From Eubacteriales bacterium (GTDB lineage: Bacteria > Bacillota > Clostridia > Oscillospirales > CAG-272), in NCBI GenBank assembly GCA_045632185.1, contig JAZQWF010000056.1, positions 28,168-92,167 of the forward strand: a stretch of DNA of 64,000 nt, in the 5' to 3' direction. Below, piece after piece: positions 8,211-29,065 of the stretch. The position numbers and the translations under genes are program-made. The notes under the pieces were generated by a model that had not been told where the DNA came from, did not search any database, and saw only the letters and a program-made list of their open reading frames with translations. The stretch's first letter is position 1; each line of letters begins with the position of its first letter.

Positions 8211-9089
8211 ATGAAAATTATCGAATTATTAAAAGAAAAAAAGCTTTCTATTTCCTTTGAGGTGTTTCCGCCCAAGACCGAGAGCAATTTTGAGGGGGTA
8301 AAGCGCGCGACCGAGCAGATCGCGGCGCTGCAACCCTCCTTTATGAGCGTGACCTACGGTGCGGGCGGCGGTACCAGTCAGTTCACCCTGGATATTGCCA
8401 AGAATATCATGGAGCAATACGCCGTGCCGAGCATTGCGCATCTGACCTGCGTGTCCTCTACGCGCCAAACGGTGCGCGAGCAGATCAAGCGGATCAAGGA
8501 GGCAGGCATTGAGAATATTCTTGCGCTGCGCGGTGATATTCCCGAGGAAAAGAAGAACGAGGATCGCTCGGGCTGGGACTACACCCACGCGGTGGATCTG
8601 GTGAGGGAATTGAAGGCAGAAAACCCCGATTTTTGCGTGGGCGGCGCCTGCTACCCCGAAATTCACCCCGAAAGCGCCGATCAGCGCACGGATATCCGTT
8701 ACTTAAAGGAGAAGGTGGACGCGGGCTGCGAGTTCCTGACCACACAGATGTTTTTTGATAACAATCTGCTGTATAATTTCCTTTACAAGATCCGCGAGGA
8801 GGGCGTGACCGTTCCCGTGATCCCCGGTATCATGCCGATCACCAACGGCAATCAGGTGGCGCGAGCCATCGCGCTTTCCGGCTCGTTCGTGCCGCAGCGC
8901 TTCAAGTCGCTTGTAGACAAGTTCGGCACCGATCCCGCCGCGATGAAGCAGGCGGGTATCGTCTATGCGACCGACCAGATCATCGACCTGTTCGCCAACG
9001 GTATCACGCACGTACACGTGTATTCGATGAACAAGCCCGACGTGGCACAGAGTATTCTGCGCAATCTGTCGGATATTCTTGGGAAATGA
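8211..9089 (+). CDS. metF: 5,10-methylenetetrahydrofolate reductase
   Basis: 292 aa. The N-terminus (SFEVFPPKT...SVTYGAGG) and the overall pattern are typical of MetF. It lies directly upstream of methionine synthase. Confidence 0.9.
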   Translation: MKIIELLKEKKLSISFEVFPPKTESNFEGVKRATEQIAALQPSFMSVTYGAGGGTSQFTLDIAKNIMEQYAVPSIAHLTCVSSTRQTVREQIKRIKEAGIENILALRGDIPEEKKNEDRSGWDYTHAVDLVRELKAENPDFCVGGACYPEIHPESADQRTDIRYLKEKVDAGCEFLTTQMFFDNNLLYNFLYKIREEGVTVPVIPGIMPITNGNQVARAIALSGSFVPQRFKSLVDKFGTDPAAMKQAGIVYATDQIIDLFANGITHVHVYSMNKPDVAQSILRNLSDILGK

Positions 9090-12000: not shown

Positions 12001-12008
12001 ATGTTGGA

Positions 12009-12230
12009 TCAAAGTGCTTCCAGGTAATTTACCACGTCACCGACGGTGATAAACTTGTTGGAATCGGCATCGGAGATCTCGATACCGAACTTATCCTCAC
12101 ACATCATAACCAGGTCTGCAAGGTCGATCGAGTTGATACCAAGATCGTTGGCAAGCTCTGCGTCCATAGAGATGCTATCCTCGTCGATTTGAAGCTCTTC
12201 AACCAGCAATTCCTTCAATTTTTCAAACAT
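12009..12230 (-). CDS. acpP: acyl carrier protein
   Basis: 73 aa after trimming to MFEKLKELLVEE.... The phosphopantetheine-attachment motif DLGINSIDLADLV is present. The rest of track ORF 12009..12554 is promoter or antisense DNA. Confidence 0.85.
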   Translation of the reverse strand: MFEKLKELLVEELQIDEDSISMDAELANDLGINSIDLADLVMMCEDKFGIEISDADSNKFITVGDVVNYLEAL

Positions 12231-25182: not shown

Positions 25183-25443
25183 ATGCTACATATTATAGAA
25201 GAAAATCGCTGCGAGGCGTTGGGGCGATATATTGTAAGCTATCAGGCGACCGTGCGTGACACCGCCGCAAAATTTCAGATCAGCAAAAGCACCGTACACA
25301 AGGATGTGACCGCCGTGCTGAAAAATATCAATCGCGGGCTTTATGAGGAGGTCAGTGCCATTTTGCAGAAAAACAAATCAGAGCGCCACCTGCGCGGCGG
25401 CGAGGCCACGCGAAAAAAATACGAGCGAAGCGGCAAAAAATAA
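25183..25443 (+). CDS. spoIIID: stage III sporulation protein D (mother-cell transcription regulator)
   Basis: 86 aa. The sequence MLHIIEENRCEALGRYIVSYQATVRDTAAKFQISKSTVHKDV...SERHLRGGEATRKKY matches the SpoIIID HTH family. A GGGGAAAGGGA ribosome-binding site is present. Confidence 0.9.
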   Translation: MLHIIEENRCEALGRYIVSYQATVRDTAAKFQISKSTVHKDVTAVLKNINRGLYEEVSAILQKNKSERHLRGGEATRKKYERSGKK

Positions 25444-25494
25444 ACGGGGAGGCGAAGAACCCGCCTTATTTGCTTTTTGGCTCATTTATAGATA

Positions 25495-25510
25495 CAATTA
25501 TACAAAATAC
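25495..25510. repeat. left direct repeat (attL core)
   Basis: CAATTATACAAAATAC, identical to 27803-27818. Confidence 0.95.
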
Positions 25511-25638
25511 GGTTTTTGTTTGACTTGAAAGTGGCGGGGGCGCCATTTCCTATCGCGCATTGCGCGGGCGCCTTTCCTTTCCGCCGCTGGGCGCGGGGCT
25601 TGCAACGAGCCAAACCATACAAAAACCCGTATTTTGTA
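25501..25638. repeat. imperfect inverted repeat: left att core paired with an inverted internal copy, enclosing an 83-nt loop
   Basis: Pairing was checked by hand. 25501-25512 pairs with 25627-25638 (12 bp), C25626 is unpaired, 25513-25519 pairs with 25619-25625 (7 bp), and 5 further pairs extend out to 25527/25611. Confidence 0.85.
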
Positions 25639-25771
25639 AGCACATCCGCGCTTCGGCGCGGGTGCGGTTAATTGCCGCGATTTCCGCCACTTGCCGCCGT
25701 CTGCGCGCGCGCGCCCCTCCTTCCCACTCTCCCGCCCGCTGGACAAATATTGCGATTGTGAAAAATCCCGC

Positions 25772-25800
25772 TTGACATTCCACACCAAGCGTGATATAAT
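25772..25800 (+). promoter_or_regulatory. near-consensus sigmaA promoter inside the element, facing rep
   Basis: TTGACA (25772-25777), a 17-nt spacer, then an extended -10 TGaTATAAT (25792-25800). Confidence 0.75.
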
Positions 25801-26138
25801 AAGTGTGCAGATATACCGCATGGTATAAACGCACGCCAAAGTCCACGATCGCGCGCAGGGCTGGGCGCTGTGATCGCGTGCGTAAGCCAAAGGGAGTTCC
25901 CGCAAGGGGGCTCCCTTTTCGCGTCCCCGCGTATGCGGGTATCTGCGCTCCCCCAGCGGGGGACGGGAGGGGGAGAAAACCCGCCCGCGGCGAAACGGGG
26001 TGCAGGGGTACCCCCTGCACGCAAGCCCCCTCGGGGGCACAGCGGAACGGGGGGGGAGGGCGCTCCGTTGCGCCCGTAACTCTCAATGGAGGATTGCAAA
26101 TCCATTACTTGATATATAGGACAGTATGTCATCAAATC
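25801..26138 (+). other. hairpin-dense GC-rich leader (candidate structured RNA or single-strand origin)
   Basis: There are successive stem-loops: GGGAG..CCC-GCAA-GGG..CTCCC (25893-25916), CCCGC-GTAT-GCGGG, CCCCC-AGC-GGGGG, GTGCAGGGG-TAC-CCCCTGCAC (a 9-bp stem) and GCCCC-CTCG-GGGGC. Translations in all frames are low-complexity G/R/P. Confidence 0.45.
26107..26115 (+). other. candidate rolling-circle nick site (phiX174-ori-like ACTTGATAT)
   Basis: There is a 9-nt identity to my recollection of the phiX174 origin core CAACTTG/ATATTAATAAC. The motif lies immediately 3' of a GGATT-GCA-AATCC hairpin and 24 nt upstream of the rep ATG. Confidence 0.3.
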
Positions 26139-26972
26139 ATGCAATTCCAGTCCAGCCAAAAACTAAATTCTTTTTCCGCCCCAGCGGAAAAATTCCACGC
26201 CCGCGCAAAGTACATTCCCGACGGAAACGGCGGCTTAAAACTCGCTATGGTTCAGGGCTTTACATTCCCGATGTTCAATCCCGACGCCGACGCCTCCGCC
26301 GTCAAAAAAAGCGGCGTTGCCGAGGATCCCGCCCCGCGCGATCCTACGGCTTCGCCCGCGCTTGCCGATGTTGAGCGCGCTTCCCGCCGCGCGAAAATTT
26401 CCGCTTTCGATAAAATCCTCTGCAATCCCGACCTTGACACCTTCGCCACATTCACCTATGCTCCCGATTTTGTGACCGATAAAGCCGATTGGGACGCGTG
26501 CTACCGCTATTTGAAAAATTGGCTTTCCAACCGCGTCCAGCGCGATGGCTTAAAATATGTGATTGTTCCCGAGCGTCACAAATCGGGGGATATTCATTTC
26601 CACGGGATTTTGAACAGCAGCGCGCTTGACCTTTCGCGCGCGGTGTCACCGAAAAGCGGCCGCCCGCTTTCCCACAAGGGCAACCCGCTTTTCAACATAC
26701 CCGATTGGCGCGGCGGCTTCACTTCTGCCGAGATTATTCAAGGCGGCGCGCAAGACCGCGAAAAAGTGGCAAAATATATTTTCAAGTACATGGGCAAGCA
26801 AGCGGGCGCGAAAGTCGGCGGGCGGTATATGCTTTCCGGCGGTGATCTTGTTTTGCCGACTTATGTTTACGAGCAGAGTATTGACGCGCTGCTTGACGGC
26901 ACCACGCCCGTTTATGATCGCGCCGTCGATCTTGGGGAGCGGGGTAAATATTTTGAGTACAGTTTTATTTGA
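26139..26972 (+). CDS. rolling-circle replication initiator, HUH superfamily I (two-tyrosine, Microviridae gpA/VP4-like)
   Basis: 277 aa counted from the first ATG after the structured region. Motif I is FATFTY, motif II is GDIHFHGIL (HUH), and motif III is KYIFKYMGK (Y-x-x-x-Y). The start codon is uncertain because no clear ribosome-binding site is present and the ORF stays open upstream to 25803. Confidence 0.75.
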   Translation: MQFQSSQKLNSFSAPAEKFHARAKYIPDGNGGLKLAMVQGFTFPMFNPDADASAVKKSGVAEDPAPRDPTASPALADVERASRRAKISAFDKILCNPDLDTFATFTYAPDFVTDKADWDACYRYLKNWLSNRVQRDGLKYVIVPERHKSGDIHFHGILNSSALDLSRAVSPKSGRPLSHKGNPLFNIPDWRGGFTSAEIIQGGAQDREKVAKYIFKYMGKQAGAKVGGRYMLSGGDLVLPTYVYEQSIDALLDGTTPVYDRAVDLGERGKYFEYSFI

Positions 26973-27109
26973 CAATGTGTCCCAAAAACGGGACGCAAAA
27001 TGCAGCCGCCCGCCGACGGCCGCCGCCCCCGGTGGTTGGCGGTGGGTGGAAGCCGCGCCCGCGCGGCAAAAACCCAGCCAAAAACAATTTAACAGTTTAG
27101 GAGTGTAAA

Positions 27110-27676
27110 ATGCAGAGCAAATACCTTGAAGCCCGCGAAATCTCCGCTTTGCGGCGTGAAGCGGGCGTAGAGTGGTTGCCGCTGGAAGTGGCATTTTTGA
27201 CGGGGCTGCGGATTGGTGATGTGCTGAAAATCCGCCCGTGTGATCTCACGCCGCAGGGCGTAGTTTACACGGCGGAAAAAACGGGCAAGCGTGGATTTGC
27301 GCCCCTGCCGCCAACGGTCTTGGCGGCGTTGCATAAAAATGCGCGGGGAGAATGGTGCTTTCCCTCGCCAAAGGCGAAAGGGAAGCACCTCACGCGCCAA
27401 GCCGCATGGCAACGCATAAAGAGAGCCGCCAAGCGCGCAGGGGTGGAGCCGCGCGGGGTGAGCCCGCACGCCCTGCGCAAAAGTTTTGCAGTGGAGCGCA
27501 TGCACACGGGGGGCTTGCAAGCGGTGCAGGCGGCGTTACAGCATGACAGCGCGGGTGTAACCGAGATTTACGCGCTTTCCGACTGGCTGACGGGGGAAAA
27601 CGCAAACAAGCCGCTTTTGCGCCGCGACCTGCAAGCCATTGCGACAAAAATTGCCGAGTTGCTTCGGGGGGGTTGA
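27110..27676 (+). CDS. tyrosine recombinase/integrase, catalytic domain only (188 aa)
   Basis: An AGGAG ribosome-binding site is present, and an in-frame TAG 12 nt upstream prevents any N-terminal extension. The catalytic signature is complete: Arg (LTGLRIGDV), Lys (EKTGKR), HxxR (SPHALRKSF), His (LQHDS) and the Tyr nucleophile (VTEIY). Confidence 0.85.
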   Translation: MQSKYLEAREISALRREAGVEWLPLEVAFLTGLRIGDVLKIRPCDLTPQGVVYTAEKTGKRGFAPLPPTVLAALHKNARGEWCFPSPKAKGKHLTRQAAWQRIKRAAKRAGVEPRGVSPHALRKSFAVERMHTGGLQAVQAALQHDSAGVTEIYALSDWLTGENANKPLLRRDLQAIATKIAELLRGG

Positions 27677-27802
27677 TTTTTGCGGGTTTCCGTGGTAACA
27701 TAGTGGGGAAAGGAGGTTGTCCTATAAAACAGCCATCTTCCTTTGGAGTTACCGCAAACAGGGGCGCTGTGCGCGCAGGTGGCGGCTTTTAATATGGCGG
27801 GG

Positions 27803-27818
27803 CAATTATACAAAATAC
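27803..27818. repeat. right direct repeat (attR core)
   Basis: CAATTATACAAAATAC. It is embedded in the perfect palindrome TATACAAAA-TACAAG-TTTTGTATA (27807-27830). Confidence 0.95.
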
Positions 27819-27966
27819 AAGTTTTGTATAAAAGAGGGGATCTAAAAAGGGCCTGAATACGGGGGTTTGGTGCGTCTGCGGCCTGATTTATGCTTGGGCG
27901 TGATATTCGGCCTGGATTTTTGATGGTTTTGCCTTCCTACGCAATTTTGATGTTTTTTGATCTGCT

Positions 27967-28108
27967 GCGTTAAAAATTTTTTCTTCAAACGATCAACACC
28001 CCGTACCGCACAATTATTTTTAACGTGCCTTTTTTCTTTGGAGCGCACTTACGGCATAAATTTTTCTTAAAAGCTTATTTTCAAAAAATGAGCGTTAAAA
28101 ATTTTTTC
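27967..28108. repeat. 17-bp perfect direct repeat pair GCGTTAAAAATTTTTTC (27967-27983 and 28092-28108) with inverted partial copies
   Basis: The two copies are exact and 125 bp apart. Partial inverted copies lie at 28016-28025 (ACGTTAAAAA on the minus strand) and 28144-28154 (GCTGCGTTAAA on the minus strand). Confidence 0.8.
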
Positions 28109-28443
28109 CTGTAACGGACTGTGCATCGTTTTTCATCATTTCATTTAACGCAGCAAAACGCCGCCGAGGCACCATCATATAAAATCCGAAAGCAATACAA
28201 ACATCACTTTGTAAAAAAATCCTTTTTCTTCTTTTTGTTAATGTTTTAACAATCAAAAGAAAAGCTTTGAGATTTTTATACAAAACAAAATCTTATAAAT
28301 TGTAAATAGTACCGATTTTTTCGTGTTTGTTCAAAAAAAGATTGCCCTTATTTTAGTTTTATGTTATAATATCTGCGTATGGTTGAAAGTATGCTTTACG
28401 GCAAGCTTTCCTATCAAAAAATTCATCGGAGGTTTACCGAATT

Positions 28444-28869
28444 ATGGCAATCAAAATGCGCGTACTTTACACCCCCACCAAGAAAAAACTGGCTGACATG
28501 GCCAATATCATCAAGGCAGAATACGCCCTGGACGTCAACGCTGTTGACAAGATCCTTCCCGCTTATTCCTGCAATAACGAGCGTATCGTGATCCTGATGC
28601 TCTCCCTCAAAGGCGAGCCCGACGATCAGCTCCGTCGTTTCTGCGGCGAGATGACCAAGGCACGTGCCAACAACACTGCCCTGATCATCAACGGTCCCGA
28701 GGCCGCTGCAAACCGCATGAAGGAGATCCTGGTGGCTGCCGGCACCAAGGTTGTTGACGAGGTATTCTACGTCAAGACCGCATTCCTTTCCTTCCTTGAC
28801 AAGATCACGGATGAGGAAAAGGCAGATCTGCTTGCTTGGACGCACCGCGTTGTTGACGGCTTGCAGTAA
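28444..28869 (+). CDS. hypothetical protein (alpha/beta, flavodoxin-like impression only)
   Basis: 141 aa. A GGAGG lies upstream, and a TTGCCC-17-TATAAT promoter sits at about 28343-28371. A strong terminator follows. I recognised no diagnostic motif. Confidence 0.55.
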   Translation: MAIKMRVLYTPTKKKLADMANIIKAEYALDVNAVDKILPAYSCNNERIVILMLSLKGEPDDQLRRFCGEMTKARANNTALIINGPEAAANRMKEILVAAGTKVVDEVFYVKTAFLSFLDKITDEEKADLLAWTHRVVDGLQ

Positions 28870-28888
28870 TCCGTTTGACACAAAAAAA

Positions 28889-28919
28889 GCCCTTGCCGAC
28901 GATGCGGCAAGGGCTTTTT
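28889..28919 (+). terminator. rho-independent terminator
   Basis: Hairpin GCCCTTGCCG-ACGATG-CGGCAAGGGC followed by TTTTT. Confidence 0.85.
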
Positions 28920-29065
28920 GCTATTTCAAAAAGTAAACATTTTGCAAAATTTCCCCTTCCCGCTTGCTCTTTTTTGCTTATTATGTTATACTATATGGGA
29001 TTATATTTCTAATCGCGAGCGATATGTACGCGCGCGATAAGTTTAAGCAAAGCGAGGTCTTACTT

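Follow-up and report, generated by a model that had tools for sequence, protein, structure and literature searches.

Within a 64,000-nt stretch of contig JAZQWF010000056.1 from an Eubacteriales bacterium (assembly GCA_045632185.1; the whole stretch is hereafter called the window), a 2.3-kb insertion carries an inverted repeat at its left end and two + strand genes only, one for a rolling-circle initiator (rep) and one for a small tyrosine recombinase (int); virion, Zot and RstB genes are absent. The inverted repeat is probably the attachment site of a minimal integrative replicon, which would act as a folded hairpin like the attP(+) of CTXphi. An earlier note on this DNA had proposed such a CTXphi-like folded site, and that interpretation is supported by the conservation of the inner copy among relatives, the covariation between the arms and the lack of an invertible segment, although its comparison with the bulged attC sites of integrons does not hold. 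Also in line with the CTXphi model are a Rep of the filamentous-phage type, an exchange at one border of the spacer, the better folding of the strand predicted to be displaced and a target resembling dif, a point that the earlier note did not make. More tentatively, as something quite possible rather than probable, the element may belong to an undescribed large family of 2.2-3.2 kb inovirus-derived replicons of gut Clostridia that integrates as folded single-stranded DNA (ssDNA) into a non-canonical palindromic dif, using or aided by a self-encoded recombinase without a core-binding domain.

The hairpin at the left end of the element

The insertion spans 25497-27832 and is bounded by the direct repeat AATTATACAAAATAC, which begins at 25497 and again at 27805/6. 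On the left, comparison with the free-form attP of a close relative (L049; relatives are cited by locus number) identifies attL (25497..25524, + strand) as a hybrid, in which the left arm, ATTATACAAAA, is that of the host and both the spacer, TACGGT, and the right arm, TTTTGTTTGAC, are those of the element. As the outer site, attL forms the 5' half of the hairpin base. On the right, attR (27805..27832, + strand) is the regenerated host site ATTATACAAAA-TACAAG-TTTTGTATAAA, with an 11-6-11 layout and palindromic arms, and is the probable dif.

The earlier note had described a stem of 24 pairs over 27 positions with C25626 unpaired, enclosing an 83-nt GC-rich palindromic loop, and a base-by-base check found this description to be exact. 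The 5' arm of the stem (25501..25527, + strand), which was also recovered by repeat search and by folding, pairs with the inner inverted partner site in three blocks. The first, 25501-25512 with 25627-25638, is Watson-Crick at 12 of 12 positions, and the second, 25513-25519 with 25619-25625, at seven of seven; between these two blocks C25626 lies opposite nothing. The third block, 25520-25527 with 25611-25618, contains five pairs over eight positions, interrupted by T.T at 25520/25618 and by A.C and C.A at 25523-4/25614-5. All 24 pairs are Watson-Crick. The partner site itself, ACCATACAAAA-ACCCGTA-TTTTGTAAGCA, occupies 25611..25642 on the + strand (site proper from 25614), and its portion 25611-25638 makes up the 3' arm. 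The inter-site segment that forms the loop (25528..25610, + strand) has a GC content of 69%, is self-complementary and extends the stem; it contains the palindromes CGCGCATTGCGCG at 25554 and GGCGCC at 25539 and 25567.

A repeat search of the window recovered the same two arms. When 25480-25660 was folded as ssDNA by minimum free energy (MFE), a check that the earlier note had suggested, and compared with 200 shuffles, the structures of both strands used this stem. The + strand folded at -45.1 kcal/mol (z = -5.06), a stability that 0 of 200 shuffles equalled, and the - strand at -41.2 kcal/mol (z = -3.6). The 19-nt core of the site is present in the window in three copies, against 0.00 expected by chance, namely in attL at 25501, in inverted orientation at 25620-25638 and in attR at 27809. 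As its reverse complement the inner copy reads TACAAAA-TACGGGT-TTTTGTATGGT. The spacer TACGGGT is of the element type (TACGGT in attL) and not of the host type (TACAAG in attR), so that the inner arm does carry the attP spacer, as had been claimed.

Paired sites and covariation in relatives

The comparison covered 30 elements with identifiable sites, free circles included. In each of them the outer crossover site, ATTATACAAAA-N6-8-TTTTG..., has an inverted partner of the form ...CAAAA-N6-7-TTTTGTAAGC, and in MFE folds the outer and inner sites pair with each other in 30 of 30. A lack of the inner copy among relatives would have spoken against the folded site according to the earlier note; instead, the copy is retained in all 30. 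The starts of the two sites are 29-162 nt apart and the intervening segment measures 2-134 nt. In six elements (L012, L013, L016, L034, L035 and L045) the sites are just 2-6 nt apart, and the fold is a mere stem-loop. In a permuted subfamily (L041, L042, L047 and L028) the partner lies on the opposite side of the crossover site and the same duplex is formed, the integrated copies of this subfamily having the partner about 135 nt inside the right end.

The two arms of the hairpin base are conserved in different ways. In the left arm exactly 7 bp are paired (TACAAAA/TTTTGTA), after which the strands fork into the conserved, non-complementary tails ATTA and AAGC. In the right arm only TTTTG(T/C) is conserved, and the rest varies freely yet remains complementary to the partner, as in the matched arms TTTTGCCCCAG/ATGGGGCAAAA, TTTTGTACGGC/GCCGTACAAAA and TTTTGCTGA/TCAGCAAAA. 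Where the host arm deviates (TTTGAACAAAA in L058 and TTTCAACAAAA in L001), the inner partner arm shifts to TTTTGTT. At arm position +7, 10 elements share a T.T mismatch.

Covariation was quantified in a fixed-register alignment of the 30 pairs against 500 shuffles and a control in which the partner was slid out of register. Because the elements are kin, the shuffle figures given here, and the Wilcoxon figure given below for strand choice, overstate significance and are not true probabilities. Paired cells amount to 81.9%, compared with 71.2% in shuffles (reached by 0 of 500), and 112 cells are changed on both sides, compared with 40 +/- 5. For covariation the score obtained was 0.308; shuffles gave 0.122 and the slid partner no more than 0.09, and again 0 of 500 shuffles reach the observed value. 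The slid-partner control and the many distinct pair types are independent of kinship among the elements. The earlier note had also named missing covariation as a possible refutation, and the double changes dispose of it. A compensatory change is found even between close relatives: at position 2 of the spacer, the window has A.T and L049 has G.C. As far as sequence comparison can carry the point, this pattern proves that selection acts on the complementarity of the two sites, and it is evidence against two duplex sites. The structure of the hairpin, its conservation and its covariation are in this way established in silico.

Within the spacer, the last two positions are paired in 25 and 30 of the 30 elements, with four to five pair types, and pairs in the middle of the spacer occur in just 60-73%. 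The outer spacer is 7-8 nt long in 17 of 30 elements, while that of the host site is 6. Outer and inner spacers are of unequal length in 20 of 30, but in 29 of 30 elements the shorter one has the 6 nt of the host site. This suits a helix with looped-out surplus bases and not a duplex outer site recombining with a 6-bp spacer. The surplus bases (spacers of 6-8 nt against 6-7 nt) sit on either strand, and neither the number nor the position of the bulges is conserved. The likening of the single extrahelical base to the bulges of integron attC sites fails for this reason.

Junctions and the crossover

The junction sequences are observed directly. In the window the spacers of attL and attR are TACGGT and TACAAG, so that identity with the host is found on one side only (TAC), and the left arm plus TAC is common to both junctions. 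In the permuted subfamily, the attP spacer of free L041 is TTCCAG, and the integrated L042 has TTCCAG in attL and TGCAAA in attR. A host-type attR stands at the right end of every integrated locus examined and is intact in nearly all; in L059 its right arm has diverged. For the other integrated copies the right junction is mostly ATTATACAAAATGCAAATTTTGTATAAT, with conserved arms and a variable 6-nt spacer (TGCAAA, GGAAAA, GATAAA, CTTTAA and others). These sequences imply an exchange at the border of left arm and spacer, apparently on the Rep-sense strand.

The orientation of the element relative to its flank of spoIIID and a SpoU-type methylase gene differs between hosts, being opposite in L010, L012, L014, L059 and L061 to that in the window and L039. 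Since the arms of the target are palindromic, polarity is set solely by the 6-nt spacer, which is itself flipped between hosts relative to spoIIID, for example TGCAAA vs TTTGCA.

Additional target-like sites were observed beside the target or attL in L042 (3414-3522), L047 (3901-4009 and 7300-7408), L048 (2963-3071) and L002 (3456-3484). An example is TTTATACAAAATCTGCCTTTTGTAATTT, which lies 80 nt to the left. In L047 the additional sites are duplicated. They have the appearance of arrays with, or leftovers of, other elements that were stacked at one place, as at the dif of Vibrio cholerae.

Free circles and integrated copies

Relatives are numerous. Clustering gave 473 Rep and 484 Int representatives, nearly all on 2.2-3 kb contigs from gut metagenomes, and in nearly all members a mini-recombinase gene encoding 185-227 aa follows rep. 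Eleven of the contigs that were fetched have terminal overlaps of exactly the assembler k-mer size (141, 127 or 77), which indicates that they are circles of 2.2-3.2 kb. L049 is 93% identical to the element of the window, is circularly permuted relative to it and contains the closed attP junction GGGGCAATTATACAAAATGCCCGTTTTGTTTGAC; L029 and L050 are likewise circularly permuted with a closed junction. In L050, which is 87-94% identical, rep and int are separated by an inserted stretch of about 200 nt (1388-1586) that contains a 61-aa open reading frame (ORF) with a Pfam match to Exonuc_VII_S.

Integrated copies are found in metagenome-assembled genomes (MAGs) labelled Eubacteriales, Oscillospiraceae, Ca. 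Flemingiibacterium and Clostridia. In L058 a perfect 96-nt direct repeat (8911-9006 and 12007-12102) lies directly left of attL; it is made up of the final 83 nt of the element and the left arm, and marks a tandem copy that once stood there. Exact-protein look-ups of the flanking genes were used to seek an unoccupied target in the same species; spoIIID and the methyltransferase returned no record, and contigs carrying the right-flank gene break before the site.

Beyond the family, Rep homologues in Clostridia MAGs (L004-L009 and L017; 45-54% identity for the group including L022) have no mini-recombinase and no recognisable CAAAA-N-TTTTG site pair. L022 also lacks both and has a lone target-like site 360 nt 5' of its rep. 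All of these may be other element types or decayed copies. A protein search of IMG/VR gave no relatives, and the single match to a DNA motif there (L055) is unrelated. No description of this family was found in the literature searched, the coverage of which is incomplete, so that an earlier description is possible. Clostridia are also unmentioned in the literature found on integrative mobile elements that exploit Xer (IMEXs), taken as papers with IMEX in the title or abstract.

Strand choice and the predicted replication origin

A predicted double-strand origin, TTACTTGATATATAGGACAGTATGTCATCAAA, lies at 26104..26135 on the + strand. The 32-nt motif TTACTTGATATATAGGACAGTAT... is present with at most 6 mismatches in 34 loci, the Reps of which are about 50% identical, always on the Rep-sense strand and just 5' of rep. 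It has ACTTGATAT in common with the origin of phiX174, where the nick is annotated at A4306 (AACTTG/ATAT), and a related inovirus carries TTACTCGATAT 5' of its rep. Together, the conserved motif and the likeness to phiX174 predict a nick between G26111 and A26112 and the displacement of the + strand. Rep was at first assumed to be Microviridae-like; this was dropped when annotated records placed its nearest relatives in the Inoviridae, and the comparison with phiX174 is therefore kept only for the 9-nt nick motif.

The Rep-sense strand is also the one in which the hairpin is more stable. It folds better in 25 of the 30 elements, with a mean difference of 1.65 kcal/mol (Wilcoxon p = 7e-4), and at arm positions +7 to +9 it contains 14 G.T against 1 A.C.

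A G-tract is found about 45-60 nt 5' of the nick motif, as GGGGGGGGAGGG at 26050-26062 in the window and as GAGGGGCGGGGGGGTG in L019, L026, L030, L033, L038 and L044. It may fold as a G-quadruplex or be bound by Rep.

A model for integration

Based on these observations, integration may proceed as follows. Rep would nick the + strand at TTACTTG/ATAT just 5' of rep, and rolling-circle replication would free circles of the + strand. In these, the outer site (ATTATACAAAA-spacer-TTTTGT...) and the inverted inner partner would anneal, aided by the GC-rich stem of the inter-site segment. The base of the resulting hairpin would imitate the 28-bp host site, with a 7-bp left-arm duplex, a fork, a spacer paired at its ends only and a variable but complementary right arm. 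A tyrosine recombinase, which may be the Int of the element, a host Xer or both, would then cut the + strand at the border of left arm and spacer and swap it with the host site, the exchange being stabilised by 1-5 nt of spacer identity (TAC in the window). The rest of the spacer is heterologous, so that a second exchange would not follow, and the pseudo-Holliday junction would presumably be resolved by replication, as in CTXphi. The expected product begins with a host arm joined to the element spacer, has the hairpin partner some 100 nt in from the left end and finishes at the right with an intact host site, which is the arrangement seen in the window. Free copies would arise by excision between attL and attR or by replication from tandem copies.

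Several points weigh against this model. The covariation says nothing of which form of nucleic acid folds, and a cruciform extruded from supercoiled double-stranded DNA (dsDNA) would give an equal signal. The ssDNA circles are a presumed integrating substrate, and the predicted position of the nick derives from the 9-nt likeness to phiX174. The closed attP junctions can equally derive from tandem integrated copies. Finally, a recombinase gene is present in the element and in none of the CTX-type IMEXs described, and this fits ordinary duplex integration equally well.

Alternative explanations

In ordinary duplex integration, Int would recombine the double-stranded outer site with the host site, and the inner copy would be a second duplex site for Int or Xer with an accessory, architectural, multimer-resolution or excision-control role. 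Elements that combine a rolling-circle Rep with an integrase and integrate as dsDNA do exist, for example pSAM2 of actinomycetes. The element encodes a complete catalytic tyrosine recombinase, and its inner site is itself built as arm, 6 nt and arm. On the other hand, a protein-binding site would keep its sequence, whereas the variable arm changes freely and stays complementary. The spacing of the sites is just as difficult to accommodate, given its range and given that the abutting sites of six elements are too close for two separately bound duplexes. Outer spacers longer than that of the host in more than half of the elements and a partner that may stand on either side of the crossover site also argue against duplex integration, which is therefore considered unlikely.

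Rather less probable still is that the hairpin serves primarily as a single-strand origin (sso) for lagging-strand priming, or as a packaging signal for a helper filamentous phage, and merely overlaps the att site. Rolling-circle replicons need an sso, and filamentous phages package their genomes by means of an ssDNA hairpin. The structure is biased to the strand predicted to be displaced, the nearest annotated relatives of Rep are from gut Inoviridae, and inoviruses of gut Clostridiales exist (PMC8530359). Such a role leaves unexplained why the stem base mimics the host target in its arms and 6-nt spacer and why it tracks variants of the host site. The upper stem is the most variable part of the hairpin in both length and sequence, about 470 nt of other GC-rich hairpins (25640-26100) are at hand for an sso, and no relatives were found in IMG/VR. 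An sso or packaging role could be compatible with the att role.

The remaining explanations survive poorly. FimB and FimE, of about 190-200 aa and consisting essentially of the catalytic domain, act on short inverted repeats and invert a promoter segment, and the element likewise has a recombinase of about 190 aa without an N-terminal domain and two inverted sites that flank a segment. The earlier note had offered such a switch as its alternative. With 2-6 nt between the sites in six elements there is no segment to invert, which excludes this alternative. Moreover, the inter-site segment is a palindrome whose content is not conserved, it does not include the strong promoter, the alignment of L049 with the window runs collinearly through it, and the outer site is demonstrably an integration junction; a Fim-like switch is thus highly improbable. 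The stem is AT-rich and intergenic, and in the circular form it lies downstream of int; even so, a palindrome that arose by chance, or a transcription terminator uninvolved in recombination, has a negligible probability in view of the number of core matches expected by chance, the fold z of -5 and the covariation in 30 elements, and no U-tract directly follows a GC stem and no Rfam family is matched.

Comparison with known systems

The closest parallel to the folded hairpin site is CTXphi, in which two inverted dif-like sites 90 bp apart fold in the (+) ssDNA into attP(+) (PMC4246890). XerC swaps one pair of strands at the edge of the central region, the specificity comes from pairing on that side, and non-homology on the other side blocks a second exchange, so that replication resolves the junction (PMC4246890). 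The prophage is unable to excise, and tandem copies release it anew through rolling-circle replication (PMC4246890). In attP(+), mismatched thymines are found in the arms, together with a small loop (PMC3442271). The earlier note had stated that the partner lies about 90 nt inside the junction in CTXphi; the published distance bears this out, and the layout of the window element matches it.

The likeness to CTXphi and the CTX-type IMEXs RS1, YpfPhi and CUS-1Phi extends to several features. In silico, the inverted target-like sites of the element anneal into a hairpin mimicking the probable dif, with a segment of variable length in place of one of about 90 bp. The arms contain mismatches including T.T, the central region is imperfect and identity with the host spacer is one-sided. 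Read from the sequences, a single strand-pair exchange with regeneration of the host site and a partner inside one end appear to be common to both, as is a rolling-circle Rep of the filamentous-phage type. In contrast, the hosts here are Gram-positive Clostridia, and the element is only 2.3 kb long, without a virion, Zot or RstB. The arms of its target are palindromic, the target itself is no canonical XerCD dif, and in the permuted subfamily the partner stands on the opposite side of the crossover site. IMEXs by definition use the XerCD of the host, and because the element encodes its own tyrosine recombinase it lacks this defining feature. It is therefore better regarded as a variant of the CTX-type folded-attP mechanism than as a strict member of the IMEX family.

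In integrons, recombination of attC with attI by IntI is described as using a folded single strand as the substrate of a tyrosine recombinase, with exchange of one strand pair and resolution by replication (PMC4792948). A folded-single-strand substrate and one-strand-pair exchange are also proposed for the element. The recognition of attC needs conserved extrahelical bases and an I2 helix specific to IntI (PMC7790495). In the element, on the contrary, bulges keep to no conserved position, and Int, which has the catalytic domain and nothing more, best matches XerD and is not IntI-like. The VGJphi- and TLCphi-type IMEXs integrate at dif, as the element probably does, and resemble it in their one-sided spacer identity, and TLCphi and RS1, which are satellites, are similar in carrying a replication module and no morphogenesis genes; VGJphi- and TLCphi-type attP sites, however, are single duplexes of 28-29 bp with no inverted partner. 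The integration of LME-1 in Legionella pointed to a non-canonical dif/Xer system not recognised before, and the abstract gave no indication of a folded attP, a rolling-circle Rep or a mini-recombinase (PMC9765430). FimB and FimE are comparable in the size of the recombinase and in the short inverted repeats, and differ in that the element has no invertible segment and that its site is an integration junction.

The target as a possible dif site

The conclusion on the hairpin is independent of what the target is, but there is good reason to suspect that it is the chromosomal dif of these Clostridia, although of an unconventional type. The host site is a 28-bp palindrome of 11-6-11 layout, the arms of which are conserved across genera of Clostridia hosts and the spacer of which varies. 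One full target site is present in the 64-kb window. The assignment as a probable dif follows from its position near a switch in GC skew, which on the + strand of the window changes from +0.040 on the left of the element to -0.043 on its right, with the cumulative maximum on a plateau at 28-32 kb. In L058, with 10-kb flanks, the skew is +0.107/-0.035 and gene strands switch from + to - at the element. The element remnants stacked at the site and the XerD-like Int also speak for dif. When 12 loci were pooled with flanks of at most 4 kb, the skew was +0.016 on the left (z = 1.6) and -0.011 on the right (z = -1.1), values too noisy to be informative, and in L059 the switch is weak.

Other observations count against dif. 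In L061 there is no skew switch within +/-10 kb, the target is syntenic with spoIIID in several hosts, and this type of site is absent from the predicted dif list of Kono et al. and unlike the canonical dif of Firmicutes. Of that canonical dif, no copy is found in the 64-kb window. A phmmer search with Int as the query found no other tyrosine recombinase gene in the window; a single host Xer, if one is used, is therefore not encoded beside the putative dif, unlike XerS and XerH.

Genes and flanks of the element

The rep gene (26139..26972, + strand) encodes a 277-aa HUH rolling-circle initiator with the motifs H153-F-H155 and Y213-x-x-K-Y217. It matches Pfam PF23343 (REP_ORF2-G2P) at 1e-13 and a PHROG described as 'rolling circle DNA replication initiation'. 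Across 30 sequences, both H153-F-H155 and Y213-I-F-K-Y217 stay unchanged. Its closest annotated relatives belong to gut Inoviridae that have Zot and RstB-like genes.

The int gene (27110..27676, + strand) encodes a 188-aa tyrosine recombinase (Pfam PF00589, 6e-19) that consists of the catalytic domain only, with R34, K57/K60, H120, R123, H145 and Y154. Among 29 sequences, Y154 is at least 90% conserved and the other residues are invariant. The match to PF00589 begins at residue 25, so that the N-terminal core-binding domain present in Xer, Cre and lambda Int is missing, and proteins of the family are all 185-227 aa in length. The best match in the PDB is XerD (4e-13), with IntI4 at 2e-4. Past the catalytic tyrosine, residues 158-173 (27581-27628) form a tail in which D158, W159, T161, G162, P168, R171 and D173 are invariant. 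This tail is a candidate surface for contact with a partner subunit or a host Xer.

On the left flank, the host gene spoIIID (25183..25443, + strand; Pfam SpoIIID, 2.5e-31) is syntenic with the site in other hosts, and a terminator-like hairpin that follows it (25449-25467) stops 30 nt short of the target. Within the element and downstream of the hairpin, a perfect TG-extended promoter of the sigma-70 type, TTGACA-17-TATAAT (25772..25800, + strand; 12/12 matches), is directed toward rep. It sits about 340 nt 5' of the rep start and is followed by about 300 nt of GC-rich hairpins (25800-26100) with no convincing ORF, which could be a long structured leader, a small RNA or a single-strand origin. 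An Rfam scan returned only sub-threshold chance matches. Directly right of the regenerated target site, about 600 nt (27850-28440) are AT-rich and without a long ORF, and the GC content of 0.417 in 28001-29000 is the second lowest of the 1-kb bins of the window. Contigs from other samples break within 27850-28440, and L052 begins about 430 nt upstream of the next gene.

Implications

Recombination of folded ssDNA by tyrosine recombinases is known from very few systems, the CTXphi-type phages and the integron cassettes, and our picture of how genomes take up ssDNA arising in replication, in conjugation or in phage infection owes much to them. With another such system, far removed in phylogeny, the strategy would prove to be general. 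If the elements do integrate as folded ssDNA into a palindromic dif with the use or help of their own recombinase, this would be an independent Gram-positive counterpart of CTXphi integration and the first case of a folded-ssDNA attP paired with an element-encoded mini-recombinase, and the chromosome dimer resolution site of many uncultured Clostridia would be identified with it.

The family is also a compact model, with a two-gene genome, hundreds of natural variants and a natural permutation of the side on which the partner lies. The rules of the hairpin can be read from covariation and include a 7-bp arm, a shorter spacer strand of 6 nt and tolerance of the T.T mismatch. This raises the question of whether a recombinase without a core-binding domain acts on the hairpin alone or as a partner of the host Xer. 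In addition, the elements point to the likely dif of uncultured gut Clostridia, a site that has no match to the canonical dif of Firmicutes.

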